Part shown: positions 17,591-49,818 of the stretch, piece after piece
Layout: each line of letters starts with the position of its first letter
Numbering within the stretch: position 1 is the stretch's first letter
The notes under the pieces: generated by a model
Told to the model about the DNA's origin: nothing
The model's input: the letters and a program-made list of their open reading frames with translations, nothing else
The model's database searches: none
Assembly: GCA_938083445.1 (NCBI GenBank)
Contig: CALKCP010000001.1
Coordinates: 22,141 to 86,140, forward strand
Origin: an uncultured Ulvibacter sp.
Lineage (GTDB): Bacteria; Bacteroidota; Bacteroidia; Flavobacteriales; Flavobacteriaceae
Reading direction: 5' to 3'
Length of the DNA: 64,000 bases
Program-made: the position numbers and the translations under genes

Positions 17591-17675
17591 GGAGAGTTGC
17601 CAGAGTGGTTAATGGAGCAGTTTGCTAAACTGTCGACGGGTAACTGTCGCGTGGGTTCGAATCCCACACTCTCCG
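17591..17675 (+). tRNA. tRNA-Ser(GCT)
   Basis: GGAGAGT/ACTCTCC acceptor stem, GCAGT-TTGCTAA-ACTGT anticodon arm, long variable arm, GGTTCGAATCC T-loop. Confidence 0.96.
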
Positions 17676-17711
17676 CAATTTTGAATACTATTTTTATTCA
17701 ACAAACACCAT

Positions 17712-17786
17712 CGGGGTGTAGCGTAGCCCGGTTATCGCGCCACGTTTGGGACGTGGAGGCCGCAGGTTCGAATCCTGCCACCCCGA
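17712..17786 (+). tRNA. tRNA-Pro(TGG)
   Basis: CGGGGTG/CACCCCG acceptor stem, CCACG-TTTGGGA-CGTGG anticodon arm, GGTTCGAATCC. Confidence 0.96.
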
Positions 17787-17791
17787 CAAAA

Positions 17792-17827
17792 TTAAATGAT
17801 GCGTTTTTATAAAAACACATCATTTAA
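17792..17827. terminator. Near-perfect 36-bp palindrome after tRNA-Pro (terminator or processing hairpin)
   Basis: TTAAATGATG-C-GTTTTT-AT-AAAAAC-A-CATCATTTAA. Confidence 0.5.
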
Positions 17828-17883
17828 AAATATAAAAGGAACATTGGCTTACATCGTTACTTTTAAAATAAACACCCTTAAAT

Positions 17884-17957
17884 GGGCTCGTAGCTCAGCT
17901 GGATAGAGCACCTCCCTTCTAAGGAGGCGGTCATAGGTTCGAATCCTATCGGGCTCA
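17884..17957 (+). tRNA. tRNA-Arg(TCT)
   Basis: GGGCTCG/CGGGCTC acceptor stem, CCTCC-CTTCTAA-GGAGG anticodon arm, GGTTCGAATCC. Confidence 0.96.
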
Positions 17958-17961
17958 CATC

Positions 17962-21813: not shown

Positions 21814-22563
21814 ATGACGTACGGCGTTTGTAATCTAAGTATTATTCCTCTAAGAGCGGAAGCTTCCGATAGTAGCGAATTGGTAAGTCAAATTCTCTAT
21901 GGTGAAATTTTCAAAGTGCTTGAAAAGCGATCCAAATGGAGCCGCATTCGTTTGGCATTCGATTCGTATGAAGGATGGGTAGATAACAAGCAATTCGCAG
22001 CCTTATTAGAAGAACAATATAATGACTTGCAGAAAGAGAAGCTGCATATGTCTTCCGATTTGGTTGAGTTTATAACGACTTCAGAAAATCAGTTGCTTTC
22101 AATCTGTCTAGGTAGCACATTAAATCCGGTCCATATATTAAAACATAGCTTTGAAGGAAAATCAATTTCTGAAACTCTTCAGAAACAACACCTTGTAAAA
22201 ACTGCCTTACTCTATTTGAATGCGCCCTACTTATGGGGAGGAAAAACACCCTTTGGTATTGATTGTAGTGGATTCACACAAATGGTGTACAAGCTGAACG
22301 GCTATAATCTAAAAAGAGATGCGAGTGAGCAAGTTACCCAGGGACAGGCCTTGAGCTTTATCGAAGAAAGCGAACCTGGAGATTTAGCATTTTTCGACAA
22401 TGCAGAAGGAAAGATAGTGCATGTAGGCATTATTATGAAGGACAATTCTATAATACATGCCCATGGTAAAGTGCGTATTGACGGCTTAGACCATACTGGA
22501 ATTTTTAATTATGAGTCCAAGACATATTCACACCAATTAAGAGTCATAAAAAAAATTGTATAA
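21814..22563 (+). CDS. SH3b plus NlpC/P60 (C40) peptidase
   Basis: YLWGGKTPFGIDCSGF, HVGI, IHAHG; N-terminal SH3-like domain. Confidence 0.93.
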   Translation: MTYGVCNLSIIPLRAEASDSSELVSQILYGEIFKVLEKRSKWSRIRLAFDSYEGWVDNKQFAALLEEQYNDLQKEKLHMSSDLVEFITTSENQLLSICLGSTLNPVHILKHSFEGKSISETLQKQHLVKTALLYLNAPYLWGGKTPFGIDCSGFTQMVYKLNGYNLKRDASEQVTQGQALSFIEESEPGDLAFFDNAEGKIVHVGIIMKDNSIIHAHGKVRIDGLDHTGIFNYESKTYSHQLRVIKKIV

Positions 22564-44571: not shown

Positions 44572-45373
44572 CATTTCGAAAAACATACATCATAGATTGT
44601 CCGTTCAAGTTTCATTGACCGGACTTTCTTTTTTAGTAAAAGGTCTAGATACCGAAGAAACTTTATTTTTCACACAAAAACAGGTTGGCAGTCGTTCAAC
44701 TCCCGAAGAATTATTACTTGAAATAGATTCTATTATTGCTAAAAATGATATGCTTCAATTGAAATTCGATGAAGTTATTCTGCTTTATTCCAATAATGTA
44801 TATACCCCAGTCCCCGCCTCTTTATTTGATGAAACAAAAGCAAGTGAATATTTAAAATTTAATTCTAAGATCCTTTCAAATGATTTTATTGCCTACGACC
44901 GAGTTGAAAGTAACAATATGGTCGTCGTTTATATTCCTTATGTAAATATCAATAATTACTTTTTTGAACGGTTTGGCGCATTTCAGTATTTCCATGCTGC
45001 ATCTATTTTTTTGAAGGATGTTTTACCATTAGCTAAACATGGCACAGGGCCTAAAATGCACCTTAATGTTCAAGAAGAACAGTTGGATGTTATCATTCTG
45101 GAAGAAGGGAAACTCTTGCTTTGCAATAGTTTTCTTTTTAAAACTTCAGAAGACTTTATTTATTATATTTTATTTTGCCTGGAACAGTTAAAATTAAATC
45201 CAGACAGTATCCCATTAATTCTCAGTGGCAGTATAGACAAAGAAGATTCAAATTATGAACTTCTTTATACGTATGTGCGGAATATATCATTCGTTGAAGA
45301 TACGTCTGGTTCTACTGCCAAATCAACCACCGAGGTATACCATAACAACTACCTTCTCAAAAACAGTTATTGA
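44549..45373 (+). CDS. DUF3822 family protein
   Basis: LSVQVSLTGLSF, EYLKFN, EDFIYYILF; start uncertain (44528 GTG or 44549 ATG). Confidence 0.8.
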   Translation: MIQQKSSNISKNIHHRLSVQVSLTGLSFLVKGLDTEETLFFTQKQVGSRSTPEELLLEIDSIIAKNDMLQLKFDEVILLYSNNVYTPVPASLFDETKASEYLKFNSKILSNDFIAYDRVESNNMVVVYIPYVNINNYFFERFGAFQYFHAASIFLKDVLPLAKHGTGPKMHLNVQEEQLDVIILEEGKLLLCNSFLFKTSEDFIYYILFCLEQLKLNPDSIPLILSGSIDKEDSNYELLYTYVRNISFVEDTSGSTAKSTTEVYHNNYLLKNSY

Positions 45374-45909
45374 TGCGGATAATTTCAGGCAGATATAAAG
45401 GGAAACGACTTTCAGCCCCAAAATCCTTACCCGTGCGACCCACAACAGATTTTGCAAAGGAAGCACTGTTCAATATTCTAAATCACAGGATTGATTTTAG
45501 TGAGGTAAGCCTCCTTGAATTGTTTGCAGGAACAGGCAATATAAGCTATGAATTTGCTTCAAGAGGAACAAAAGACATTAGCTGTGTAGATGCAGACTTT
45601 GGCTGTATAAAATTTATCAGTAAAACTGCAGAAGAGCTCTCTTTTCCAATTAGCGCTATTAAATCGGACGTTTATAAATATGTAGCCTCTGCCAAAGGCA
45701 CGTTTGACGTAGTTTTCGCAGATCCTCCATATGCTTTCACTATGGAGCAAATGGAATCACTTGTACAAAGTTTGTTTGCAAACGATTGGATTGAACAAGA
45801 TGGGATGCTCATCATCGAGCACACCAAGCACATCGACTTATCTTCAATCCTAAACTTCTCTGAAGCAAGAAAATATGGCGGCTCTGTTTTTAGTTTCTTT
45901 CAAAAATAA
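45370..45909 (+). CDS. rsmD: 16S rRNA m2G966 methyltransferase
   Basis: MRIISG, RPTTDFAKEALF, LFAGTG, FADPPY. Confidence 0.93.
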   Translation: MMRIISGRYKGKRLSAPKSLPVRPTTDFAKEALFNILNHRIDFSEVSLLELFAGTGNISYEFASRGTKDISCVDADFGCIKFISKTAEELSFPISAIKSDVYKYVASAKGTFDVVFADPPYAFTMEQMESLVQSLFANDWIEQDGMLIIEHTKHIDLSSILNFSEARKYGGSVFSFFQK

Positions 45910-45969
45910 GGACAACAGTACGTCATTGCCCTTTAAAAGGAATTCTCAAATGCAGTATAATTAAAAAAA

Positions 45970-46285
45970 GCAGGCCTATAAGCCGGATTCTGTCTCCGAA
46001 TTAACTTCGGAGCCTTATCATTTATCTAGCCCTAACATTACTATTAGAGTCTATCTGTCTACCCTCCTGCATCGGGCGGGAACCCTCAAGCACAGGTTTA
46101 CATGACATTTCACCGCATAGAGTTTACCTGGTTTCACTACAGCATGATCTGTACATTCTTTCTGTTGCACTGGTCCTAATCCCGATATTAAATCGAGTTG
46201 ACGGCCGTTAGCCGCTATGCATCCCTATGGTGTCCGGACTTTCCTCCCTTCTTAACGAATTAAGAACGACGATAAGGCGGCCTGC
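45970..46285 (-). ncRNA. rnpB: RNase P RNA
   Basis: Minus strand has GAGGAAAGTCCGGAC near the 5' end and ACAGAATCCGGCTTAT near the 3' end; terminal GCAGGCC/GGCCTGC P1 helix; TACTTTTG promoter element at 46291-46298. Confidence 0.96.
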
Positions 46286-46379
46286 TGTTGCAAAAGTAAC
46301 CAATGTTAATAAATACACTAAATTAGCGCAAGCTATTTTTTAAAAACTAGCTGTACATCTTTATATTTGTTTCACTTCT

Positions 46380-47465
46380 ATGGAACACTTTATAGTATCA
46401 GCACTTAAGTACAGACCAACCACATTTAAAGATGTGGTGGGGCAACAGTCGATAACAAATACCTTACAAAATGCCATCCAGCAAAATCACTTGGCTCAGG
46501 CATTGTTATTTACAGGACCGCGTGGTGTTGGTAAGACGACCTGTGCCCGTATTCTGGCCAAACAGATCAATCAGGATGGAACCCAAAAAGAAAATGAAGA
46601 TTTTGCCTTCAATATTTTTGAACTGGATGCTGCGTCAAACAACACTGTAGACGACATAAGAAGTTTAATTGATCAGGTTCGAATTCCCCCACAAGTTGGA
46701 AATTACAAAGTATATATCATTGATGAAGTACATATGTTATCTCCATCAGCGTTTAATGCATTTCTTAAAACACTTGAAGAACCGCCAAAGCACGCCATAT
46801 TCATATTAGCTACCACTGAGAAGCATAAAATCATTCCTACGATACTCTCAAGATGCCAAATTTTTGATTTCAAACGTATCACCGTCAATGACATTAAAGG
46901 CCATCTAGCACATGTTGCAGAAGCTCAGGGAGTAGCTGCAGAAGATGATGCACTGCATGTAATTGCACAAAAAGCGGATGGAGCGCTGAGAGACGCACTT
47001 TCTATTTTTGATCGAGTCGTAAGCTTTTCAGGGAAAACGCTGAGTAGAGAAGCTGTCACTGAGAATCTAAATGTATTAGACTACACCTACTATTTTAATA
47101 TCACAGATCTTTTGATACAAAACAATATTCCAAAAGTATTGGTTGCCTTTAATGACATTCTAGCGAAAGGATTTGATGGGCATCATTTTATTATGGGTTT
47201 AGCATCTCATTTCAGAGATTTATTGGTTTGTAAGAATGAGGAGACCATTGCTTTATTAGAAGTTGGAGAGCAGGTTAAATCGATGTATTTTGAACAATCT
47301 CGCAACACAGTGAATTCTTTTCTAATCGAGGGGATTACACTCGCCAACAGCTGTGATTTAAAATACAAAAGTAGCCGTAACCAAAGACTTTTAGTTGAGT
47401 TATGCCTTTTACAATTAGCTTCGCTCACCGCTGTGGTTGAAAAAAAAAATCTAAGCGGTACGTAA
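46380..47465 (+). CDS. dnaX: DNA polymerase III gamma/tau, zero-frame product (gamma-like, 361 aa)
   Basis: KYRP, GPRGVGKTT, ELDAASN, IIDEVHML, SRC, ALRDA; TATATTTG promoter element at 46362-46369. Confidence 0.96.
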   Translation: MEHFIVSALKYRPTTFKDVVGQQSITNTLQNAIQQNHLAQALLFTGPRGVGKTTCARILAKQINQDGTQKENEDFAFNIFELDAASNNTVDDIRSLIDQVRIPPQVGNYKVYIIDEVHMLSPSAFNAFLKTLEEPPKHAIFILATTEKHKIIPTILSRCQIFDFKRITVNDIKGHLAHVAEAQGVAAEDDALHVIAQKADGALRDALSIFDRVVSFSGKTLSREAVTENLNVLDYTYYFNITDLLIQNNIPKVLVAFNDILAKGFDGHHFIMGLASHFRDLLVCKNEETIALLEVGEQVKSMYFEQSRNTVNSFLIEGITLANSCDLKYKSSRNQRLLVELCLLQLASLTAVVEKKNLSGT

Positions 47466-48193
47466 TACCTCCCTCCCATTTTAAACAACCTGAATTAAAA
47501 GACGAGGCAGGCGACACCTCCGGTCTAGATCAAGACAAGAACCATGTGGACCAGGTTGTAAATCATAATTCAACGTCAACGCAGAACGAGGTTGCAACCG
47601 AAACTATAGAGAAACCTGAAGGTTCTTCAGTAATTAAAACTGAAGCACCCGAGAAAACACTGCTTAAAAATTCTCCAGCCAAATTTGAGGAAAGGCCAAT
47701 TGAACGCCCTGATATACTTACGGAACGAAAAGTGAAAAAAGTATCAGCACTATCGTTAAAGAGTATTCAGAAAAAACATGAAATGAAGCAAGAGTTGGTT
47801 GCTAAAAAACCAGACTCAAAAAACTTGCCTTACAAGGATTTTACTGAAGAGGAGTTGCTTATTGCTTGGAAATCGTACAGTGACATCATTGAAAAAGAAG
47901 GAAAATACAATTTACTTTCACATCTTTCCATGGGTGTACCTAAATTGGAAGGAGTGATTATTCACTTAGAGTTTCCAAACAATACCATAAAAATTGAAGT
48001 TGAACGTTCTAAATATGAACTATTAGAATTTTTAAAAGAAAAACTTCAAAATTACAGTATCAACTTATCCATTGAGGTGAATGAAACTTCAGCCAAACGC
48101 TATGCATATACTGATAGAGAGAAGTTTCAGAAGCTAAAAGAAGTAAATCCATTAATGGACAAACTTAGAACTGAGTTTGATTTAGACGTATAA
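47441..48193 (+). CDS. dnaX: DnaX tau C-terminal extension in the -1 frame
   Basis: The -1 frame is open from 47441, immediately after TGA at 47438-47440, to 48193; linker followed by a tau-like C-terminal domain (AWKSY...LKEKLQNYSINL...NPLMDKLRTEFDLDV). Confidence 0.85.
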   Translation, partial: KKKSKRYVIPPSHFKQPELKDEAGDTSGLDQDKNHVDQVVNHNSTSTQNEVATETIEKPEGSSVIKTEAPEKTLLKNSPAKFEERPIERPDILTERKVKKVSALSLKSIQKKHEMKQELVAKKPDSKNLPYKDFTEEELLIAWKSYSDIIEKEGKYNLLSHLSMGVPKLEGVIIHLEFPNNTIKIEVERSKYELLEFLKEKLQNYSINLSIEVNETSAKRYAYTDREKFQKLKEVNPLMDKLRTEFDLDV

Positions 48194-48276
48194 CACCTAT
48201 GGAAGGCTTTGTTTAATTGGCCTCTGTACAATTTATGAATTAAAAATAGTGCCCATTGAATACCCAGAAAAAGAAC

Positions 48277-48858
48277 ATGTTAGGTTTAAAATTACCAACA
48301 GACCCGCGTTGGATCAATATTGTTGAACTAAATATTGAGGAAATCTTGACAGATCACGCATACTGTGAACAAAAGGCTGCCTCAACTGCAATTTCTTTGA
48401 TTGTAAGTTTTCCTGAATTTACGGAACTGGTACAAGAGATGATTTCCTTAGTTAAAGAAGAAATTAGTCACTTTAAAATGGTTCATGATAAAATTATTGA
48501 AAGAGGTTGGATTATGGGACGTGATCGCAAAGACGAATACGTACTTCAGATACGAACGTTTTTTCCAAAAGGAGGAAGCCGAGAAACGCAACTAGTACAT
48601 CGTCTGCTGTATGCAGCTTTAATTGAAGCAAGAAGCTGCGAACGTTTCAGACTACTAAGTGTTTCTTTAAAGGAACCTGAGCTGAGAGAATTTTATCGCA
48701 AACTCATGGTAAGTGAAGCCAATCATTATACGATGTTTCTGGCTTTTGCTCGAAAGTATGGGGATCGAAACGAGGTCGATCAAAAATGGCAAGAGCTGCT
48801 TGCATTTGAGGCTGAAGTCATGAAAGAACTCGGAAATAAAGAAACAATTCACGGATAG
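48277..48858 (+). CDS. miaE: tRNA-(ms2io6A) hydroxylase
   Basis: LTDHAYCEQKAA, EEISHF, ALIEARSCERF, SEANHY di-iron ligands; ATG at 48277. Confidence 0.92.
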   Translation: MLGLKLPTDPRWINIVELNIEEILTDHAYCEQKAASTAISLIVSFPEFTELVQEMISLVKEEISHFKMVHDKIIERGWIMGRDRKDEYVLQIRTFFPKGGSRETQLVHRLLYAALIEARSCERFRLLSVSLKEPELREFYRKLMVSEANHYTMFLAFARKYGDRNEVDQKWQELLAFEAEVMKELGNKETIHG

Positions 48859-48906: not shown

Positions 48907-49818
48907 TTAGTCTTGAGGGATATTTTCCGCATTTTTATCATTGTATAGGCTTTTAATAATACCATCTGAAAGCCCAATTTTAGGAACGTACATGCTTTTT
49001 GCTCGACTCCACTTCATTGCCGATAAATAAATACGCGTTGCAGATTCGATTACATCGGCGCGGTCGGGATTCATATCAAGCTCAATAATTCGTTCATCAT
49101 TAGAATACGACTTCACCAATTCATAAAAAGAGACCAAATAAAAATAGCTCAGTGGCGATCCCATTTTTTTTCCACTATGTTTAAAAATACGATTGATATT
49201 TCCGCCTGATCCAATCACATCAATTTTTTTAAATGTTTTGGTTTGTTTTTGAATCCAGTCTTTCATCTCAATCCAAATATCATCATGAACTCTGCCGTTT
49301 AATAGTCTAACGGTACCAATAGCAAAAGAATGAGAAGCGATTTTTTCGCCATTTTCAAATACACTTAGTTCTGTACTACCACCTCCTACATCAACATAAA
49401 GAAACACACGGTCGTTCTGTAGTAGCGATTTTAAATGGGTGGAGGCAATAATGGCGGCTTCTGCTTCTCCATCGATAATATGAATCTTTATACCTGTCTT
49501 TTCTTCAATAATATCGACCACCTCCTCGCTATTGGCTGCCTCTCGCATTGCCGACGTTGCACAGGCTTTATAGCGTGTAATGCCATGGGTATTCATCAAG
49601 AGTTGGAATGCATTCATTGCATCTATGAGTCGTGATGCATTTCTCAGAGTAATATTTCCGTCAAGAAATACATCCTCTCCCAGACGAATAGGTACTCTTA
49701 CAAGCGATGTCTTCTTAAAGATAGTGGGCTTGTCTTTTTGCTCAATGACTGTAGCAATGAGAAGACGTATTGCATTTGACCCAATATCAATTGCCCCATA
49801 TTTTTCAATCTTTAACAA
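48907..49818 (-). CDS. ppx: Ppx/GppA family exopolyphosphatase
   Basis: AIDIGSNAIR, ATSAMR, DVGGGSTE, GSGGN; lies downstream of ppk1. Confidence 0.92.
   Translation of the reverse strand: MLKIEKYGAIDIGSNAIRLLIATVIEQKDKPTIFKKTSLVRVPIRLGEDVFLDGNITLRNASRLIDAMNAFQLLMNTHGITRYKACATSAMREAANSEEVVDIIEEKTGIKIHIIDGEAEAAIIASTHLKSLLQNDRVFLYVDVGGGSTELSVFENGEKIASHSFAIGTVRLLNGRVHDDIWIEMKDWIQKQTKTFKKIDVIGSGGNINRIFKHSGKKMGSPLSYFYLVSFYELVKSYSNDERIIELDMNPDRADVIESATRIYLSAMKWSRAKSMYVPKIGLSDGIIKSLYNDKNAENIPQD

Follow-up and report, generated by a model that had tools for sequence, protein, structure and literature searches.

The dnaX gene of an uncultured Ulvibacter sp., a marine flavobacterium, carries a run of ten adenines (A10) exactly where the frame encoding the gamma form of the clamp-loader subunit of DNA polymerase III (Pol III) meets the frame encoding the C-terminal part of the longer tau form. 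This run is a programmed recoding site, most likely one that works by transcriptional slippage (programmed transcriptional realignment). The gene lies in a stretch of 64,000 nucleotides (nt), referred to here as the window, which covers positions 22,141 to 86,140 of contig CALKCP010000001.1 (GenBank assembly GCA_938083445.1) and to which all coordinates refer. An initial annotation of this DNA had proposed that standard decoding yields a gamma-like protein of 361 residues and that a -1 shift inside the A run yields a tau protein of 604 residues, and this core reading holds. The anatomy of the site, the ten adenines in the DNA, the conservation of the run and the occurrence of run-length variants among RNA contigs of relatives are established here. 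By all its sequence-level criteria, the window is a further case of the published class of dnaX genes divided over two open reading frames (ORFs) (Antonov et al., 2013, Nucleic Acids Research (NAR) 41:6514, PMC3711429). To that class the present analysis adds that the A10 run is phylum-wide, that all three possible frame arrangements occur, and that public RNA assemblies hold indirect hints of length heterogeneity.

The first of the two frames, ORF1, extends on the forward strand from an ATG at 46380 to 47465 and encodes a gamma-like clamp-loader subunit of 361 residues with ATPase domains I-III that ends in ...VVEKKNLSGT*. It matches the Pfam families DNA_pol3_delta2, AAA, DNAX_ATPase_lid and DNA_pol3_gamma3, the model TIGR02397 (dnaX_nterm) and positions 1-369 of the 614-position NCBIfam model NF011531 (DNA polymerase III gamma/tau). 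Its last codons are GTT GAA AAA AAA AAT CTA AGC GGT ACG TAA, and the A10 run within them (47440-47449, forward strand) starts at codon position 2 of GAA, in the phase G-AA AAA AAA AA-T. Directly 5' of the run the -1 frame is shut by a TGA (47438-47440), which sets the 5' limit of any shift; from 47441 to 48193 this frame is open for 250 codons followed by a TAA (48191-48193). This second frame, ORF2, encodes a linker and the tau-specific C-terminal domains, matches positions 394-613 of NF011531 (E = 1e-22) and can be aligned with in-frame orthologues as early as the first codon 3' of the run. Since ORF1 and ORF2 match successive parts of the same model, they make up a single dnaX gene in two halves with an offset of -1, and the computed addition of one A to the run joins them in a continuous protein of 604 residues. 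The coordinates of the run, of the 361-residue frame and of the -1 frame, first closed by TGA and then open, proved correct when the sequence was checked again, and the junction predicted by the initial annotation, VVEKKK-SKRYVIPP, agrees with in-frame orthologues residue for residue. Both other frames end shortly after the run, the unshifted gamma frame at a TAA 13 nt past it (47463-47465), which lies within conserved V/I-I codons (GTA ATA) of the tau frame, and the third (+1) frame at a TAA only 2 nt past it (47452-47454). The earliest potential start codon of the -1 frame, a GTG at 47546-47548, is located in the poorly conserved linker, 3' of the conserved RYVIPPSHFK motif. By composition the run is not rare, the window (37% GC) containing one A10 match against 5.9 expected from shuffles, and the argument that it is not there by chance therefore rests on its position and conservation: it is the sole A10/T10 run of the window and falls exactly at the dnaX frame junction.

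In the mechanism proposed for this site, RNA polymerase transcribing the T10 template would slip on an rA:dT hybrid of about 9-10 base pairs, producing a mixture of mRNAs with A9, A10, A11, A12 and so on. The unslipped A10 mRNA would be read to the TAA at 47463-47465 and give gamma, with 361 residues and clamp-loader domains I-III only. An A11 mRNA (and also an A14 mRNA) would fuse ORF1 to the -1 frame and give tau, with 604 residues and the junction ...VVEKKKSKRYVIPP..., and the A9 and A12 mRNAs would stop at the TAA at 47452-47454, after ...EKKI and ...EKKKI, respectively, yielding a slightly shorter gamma variant. The tau:gamma ratio would thus be fixed by the slippage spectrum, and the GTG at 47546 would not be required. 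The partners bound by the C-terminal domains of tau in characterised systems are the replicative helicase and the alpha subunit of Pol III. For this organism, the functions of these domains are inferred, and so are the occurrence and the efficiency of slippage itself.

The run was followed through the phylum by three protein-seeded scans of GTDB species genomes, which returned 190 unique loci, 137 of them Flavobacteriaceae-like (at least 72% identity to ORF1) and 53 from other Bacteroidota (Chryseobacterium, Pedobacter, Cytophagales, Chitinophagales and Bacteroidales). Exactly ten adenines are present at the homologous boundary in 165 of the 190 loci. Among these A10 loci tau is in frame in 99 (79 Flavobacteriaceae-like and 20 others), in the -1 frame, as in the window, in 60 (46 and 14, respectively) and in the +1 frame in three. 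The last three (L242, L244 and L291) come from metagenome-assembled genomes (MAGs) labelled Flavobacteriales, Paludibacter and Bacteroidaceae, and in them tau would need one A fewer or two more; no mention of this arrangement was met in the literature searched. Less common are A11 with tau in the +1 frame, A12 with tau in the -1 frame, A9 with tau in the +1 frame and A11 with tau in frame. The initial annotation had supposed the split gene to be lineage-wide, which is correct for the run, found across the phylum, but not for the inverted frame, which is patchy and occurs in 46 of the 137 Flavobacteriaceae loci. Nine loci, none of which reaches 72% identity to ORF1, have no run; most of them carry the label Bacteroidaceae or Bacteroidales. 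Loci L250, L252, L254, L261, L273, L288 and L290, most of them with these same labels, lack any boundary A run of at least seven and have a single ORF of 560-640 residues. Part of the Bacteroidales appears to have lost the slippage element. Short-read assemblies may also break at the run or give a wrong length for the homopolymer: in L071/L148 (Winogradskyella immobilis) the end of the contig falls inside the run, which shows A13 there, and in L282 an A13 run is internal to the contig.

The way in which the run is conserved bears on its function. Its codon phase is nearly always 1 within the Flavobacteriaceae, and outside this family phases 0, 1 and 2 are found in 7, 17 and 14 loci, respectively, with a length of 10 throughout. 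Because this length is kept at any phase, the run is better described as a nucleotide-level element of approximately the length of the RNA:DNA hybrid than as a codon-phased heptamer. Elsewhere in these dnaX genes 23% of the lysine codons are AAG, from which it follows that the unbroken run is maintained at the nucleotide level. The base 3' of the run varies (G in 87 loci, T in 62 and C in 29). Moreover, the two frames other than that of tau are shut close to the run far more often than at random positions of the same genes, which served as controls. The tau-1 frame has a stop within 3 nt in 78% of the loci (18% of controls) and the tau+1 frame within 15 nt in 91% (31% of controls), and in 166 of 174 loci a stop shuts each of the two non-tau frames within 30 nt, a proportion well beyond that of the controls. 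In most orthologues it is the same TAA, within ATAATT, that shuts the tau+1 frame 13-14 nt past the run.

RNA assemblies provide a first and indirect view of the run in transcripts, and they hint at run-length heterogeneity in Bacteroidota dnaX. In a freshwater metatranscriptome containing Flavobacterium relatives of the -1 type (X46), contigs with A11 account for 75.9 and contigs with A12 for 3.9 of a word depth of 149.1, with A10 alongside. Many contigs of this assembly begin or end exactly at the ends of the run, as is typical of a run of variable length in a de Bruijn graph. An isolate transcriptome of a Flavobacterium relative of this type (X43) contains one A15 contig, and X40, from the same study, shows A10. 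As a DNA control, contigs of Joint Genome Institute (JGI) metagenomes were scanned for the same motif, allowing 0-3 extra bases, and here 79 have A10 and one has A11. For the population of the window itself, an RNA contig with a depth of 15.4 (X26) stops exactly at 47449 with five non-matching letters, which may or may not be extra adenines; no DNA contig breaks at this position and all pass through it. A comparison of RNA data sets with an in-frame Flavobacterium-like locus (L098) gave back only these contigs of -1-type species and nothing downstream of the A run.

Several considerations weigh against slippage and have to be set beside these observations. The RNA runs for the window and its relatives consist of assembled contigs, which are a poor measure of variant frequency and whose depths are crude. 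The only metatranscriptome contig of the window population that crosses the run (X30, depth 3.2) has a plain A10 and thus shows no heterogeneity, although A10 is what is expected for the unslipped class. The main A11 contig of X46 carries a single-nucleotide polymorphism (SNP; L163 position 1134, A>G) that is missing from the A10 contigs, so that part of the A10/A11 split could be a strain-level difference in the DNA. Reverse transcription and PCR (polymerase chain reaction) can add homopolymer stutter of their own, as one report indicates (PMC5737552), and the literature searched yielded no experiment with dnaX from any member of the Bacteroidota. Finally, tau could be made, mainly or in part, by -1 programmed ribosomal frameshifting, in which a uniform A10 mRNA is translated and the ribosome slips on A_AAA_AAA or A_AAA_AAT. 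Both heptamers are present in phase in the window and could contribute or even dominate. Most -1-type Flavobacterium loci have a G after the run, which creates A_AAA_AAG, the heptamer of Escherichia coli dnaX, and Atkins et al. (2016; PMC5009743) use the words 'being derived from frameshifting' for the tau of such genes. A locus from the complete genome of Flavobacterium sp. P21 (L116) has only A7 (GAG AAA AAA G) and keeps both tau in the -1 frame and A_AAA_AAG in phase. This A7 is either an error of long-read sequencing in the homopolymer or the mark of a lineage dependent on ribosomal frameshifting.

Despite these points, ribosomal frameshifting is the less likely route, and we regard it as an unlikely one. 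The presence of heptamers does not discriminate between the two mechanisms because every A10 contains one. The elements that would assist a ribosomal shift were not found in the window. The downstream GGTA-CGTAA-TACC hairpin noted in the initial annotation is present but negligible (-2.6 kcal/mol, z = -0.55), being no different from shuffles, and the folds of the 81 nt downstream (z = -1.09) and of the upstream stretch (z = -0.06) are likewise indistinguishable from them, so that RNA structure is rejected as a frameshift stimulator. The sequence preceding the run, gctgtggttg, contains no GGAG and no other Shine-Dalgarno-like element at a useful distance. The free choice of the base after the run, together with this lack of a stimulatory structure, favours slippage, as does the retention of ten adenines, at any codon phase, where a heptamer of seven would suffice. 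A -1 ribosomal shift, in addition, offers no route to tau in the +1 arrangements, and this need for shifts in 'both directions' is the criterion used by Antonov et al. (2013; PMC3711429) to call transcriptional realignment. Slippage is further favoured by the closure of both off-frames, as in the dnaX gene of Thermus, where slippage feeds all frames. The A11, A12 and A15 RNA contigs of relatives also speak against a uniform mRNA. The mechanism, which the initial annotation had left unsettled, now leans towards transcriptional slippage.

Two further explanations are both highly improbable. In the first, ORF2 would be translated on its own from the GTG at 47546 as a free tau C-terminal protein. 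An in-frame GTG does exist there, and annotation pipelines often call two genes at such loci (Antonov et al., 2013; PMC3711429). However, conservation of the -1 frame starts at the first codon past the run (RYVIPPSHFK), 100 nt upstream of this GTG, which itself lies within a variable linker; both parts form one continuous ORF in 99 orthologues; and, by analogy with E. coli biochemistry, a detached tau C-terminus would be unable to couple the polymerase to the clamp loader. In the second, replication slippage would create A10 and A11 subpopulations at the DNA level, with tau made in A11 cells only. Homopolymer tracts are classic sites of such phase variation, and one of the 80 JGI metagenome contigs with the Flavobacterium motif has A11. 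This lone A11 contig (L329; Ga0123391_1111467, 1061-1098), in which A11 would put tau in frame, comes from a sample that may be DNA or RNA. Against phase variation, eight marine metagenome assemblies, X1-X8, which derive from five or more studies, contain contigs that cross the site of the window population and all have A10, even if contigs would hide rare variants, and on/off switching is hardly to be expected of an essential replication subunit.

The same eight assemblies make it least probable of all that the run is a true A11 misread as A10 or that the gene is a recent frameshift pseudogene: homopolymers are error-prone and a few assemblies do show A7, A9, A11, A12, A13 or contigs ending in the run, but X1-X8 all have A10 with the same spacer and no indel and differ from each other by SNPs, hence represent independent populations or strains, the -1 arrangement is fixed in 60 unique loci, and the downstream frame is well conserved. 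Tau is, besides, essential in characterised systems. A homopolymer or assembly error is thus excluded for practical purposes, and the choice between A10 and A11 raised by the initial annotation is answered, at the level of assembled contigs, in favour of A10.

Compared with its closest relatives, the window appears to have changed its arrangement by a single base. In Aequorivita, Altibacter, Pukyongia and related MAGs, which are 82-86% identical, tau is in frame in all cases. The Altibacter locus L017 reads A10-gtctaaatcc... where the window reads A10-tctaagcgg..., that is, the window is without one base (G) after the run. With one A added, the window encodes EKKKSK-RYVIPPSHFK against EKKKSKSRYVIPASAFK in Altibacter L017, and over the C-terminal 170 residues the alignment is good along its whole length. 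The comparison indicates that the lineage of the window lost the G after the run, relative to Altibacter-like relatives in which slippage would make gamma. Loss of a single base in this position swaps which of the two products, tau or gamma, requires slippage. The genus Flavobacterium is also mostly of the -1 type, and 60 of its species genomes have an identical 37-mer, GATGGAG-A10-GTTGAGCAATTCATAATTCC, including the run, which argues against an artefact or a pseudogene. The flip in the window is probably independent of that in Flavobacterium. The site of F. johnsoniae, rebuilt from Figure S3 of Antonov et al., gave no match in the genome contigs, and the species is absent from the results of the protein-seeded scans as well.

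The organization of the window gene was anticipated in the literature. A dnaX gene of two ORFs with A10, in which tau is obtained by recoding, was described in the GeneTack dnaX cluster for Flavobacterium johnsoniae, F. psychrophilum, Cytophaga hutchinsonii, Capnocytophaga ochracea, Chlorobi and Coraliomargarita; the set comprises 17 genes from 12 genera, nine of them with A10, including the two Flavobacterium species, and transcriptional realignment was predicted from the Thermus analogy with no dnaX experiment (Antonov et al., 2013; PMC3711429). The 'inverted' dnaX was later restated in a way that anticipates the flip principle (Atkins et al., 2016; PMC5009743). The inverted logic that the initial annotation had pointed out is therefore correct for the window but not new. 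With the genes of Antonov et al. the window shares the gene, the A10 run at the gamma/tau boundary, the -1 offset and the predicted transcriptional realignment; it differs in its host, an uncultured marine flavobacterium whose closest relatives are of the in-frame type, and in the base after the run, which is T and not G. A systematic account of the three arrangements, of the strict length of 10 at any phase and of the closure of both off-frames was not found in the literature searched, and neither Baranov et al. (2005) nor a 2025 bioRxiv paper on frameshifting contains anything on Bacteroidota dnaX.

Three known systems help to place the site. In Thermus thermophilus dnaX (Larsen et al., 2000) an A run is found at the same functional boundary, with nearby stops in both off-frames, and tau and gamma are produced from one gene, the same products that would be expected in the window. 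The Thermus run, however, is A9, its templated frame encodes tau and slippage, shown experimentally, produces gamma, whereas the window has A10, its templated frame encodes gamma and slippage is predicted. The dnaX gene of E. coli gives the same two products from one gene by means of an A-rich slippery sequence at the same boundary. There, a -1 ribosomal frameshift takes place on A_AAA_AAG in a uniform mRNA, the zero frame encodes tau, and an upstream Shine-Dalgarno-like element and a downstream stem-loop act in the process; in the window these stimulators were not found and the roles of the frames are reversed. The mxiE gene of Shigella flexneri (PMC1088944) resembles the window in that the transcriptional insertion of one nucleotide is needed for a longer functional product joining two ORFs. 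It differs from the window in having a T run and in being a regulator gene, while dnaX needs both products in comparable amounts.

The surroundings of dnaX in the window are as follows. Just upstream, on the opposite strand, lies a complete bacterial class A RNase P RNA (45963-46288, reverse strand; Rfam RF00010, 184 bits, E = 5e-59), preceded by a gene for an RsmD-like methyltransferase (45370-45909, forward strand; Pfam Cons_hypoth95). Directly downstream of dnaX a gene for the tRNA hydroxylase MiaE is located (48256-48858, forward strand), followed by one for a Ppx/GppA phosphatase (48907-49818, reverse strand). In many orthologous loci an ORF of about 198 residues trails dnaX, which suggests that the dnaX-miaE order is conserved. 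At a distance, three tRNA genes of the window form a cluster (17591-17958, forward strand) that comprises Ser-GCT, Pro-TGG and Arg-TCT.

A wider reading of these data, for and against which we see the chances as evenly balanced, is that A10 is an ancient slippage element of nearly all Bacteroidota on which RNA polymerase slips at a rate near 50%, so that the tau frame is almost free to drift and has been flipped repeatedly by single-base changes, the window being one fresh and independent flip. Indels next to the run would then carry lineages from one arrangement (in-frame, -1 or +1) to another, the tau:gamma ratio being tuned anew each time. The element would extend to Chlorobi and some Verrucomicrobia, where it is also found according to Antonov et al. 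(2013; PMC3711429). For annotation, the two ORFs are to be treated as one functional dnaX gene with two products, flagged as recoded, and not as a truncated gene followed by a hypothetical protein. The window offers a clean natural case in which tau, an essential replication subunit, would depend on non-standard decoding. The family-wide data, in turn, indicate that a single-base change can swap the product that needs slippage, and support the view that the slippage spectrum of the polymerase sets the tau:gamma ratio.

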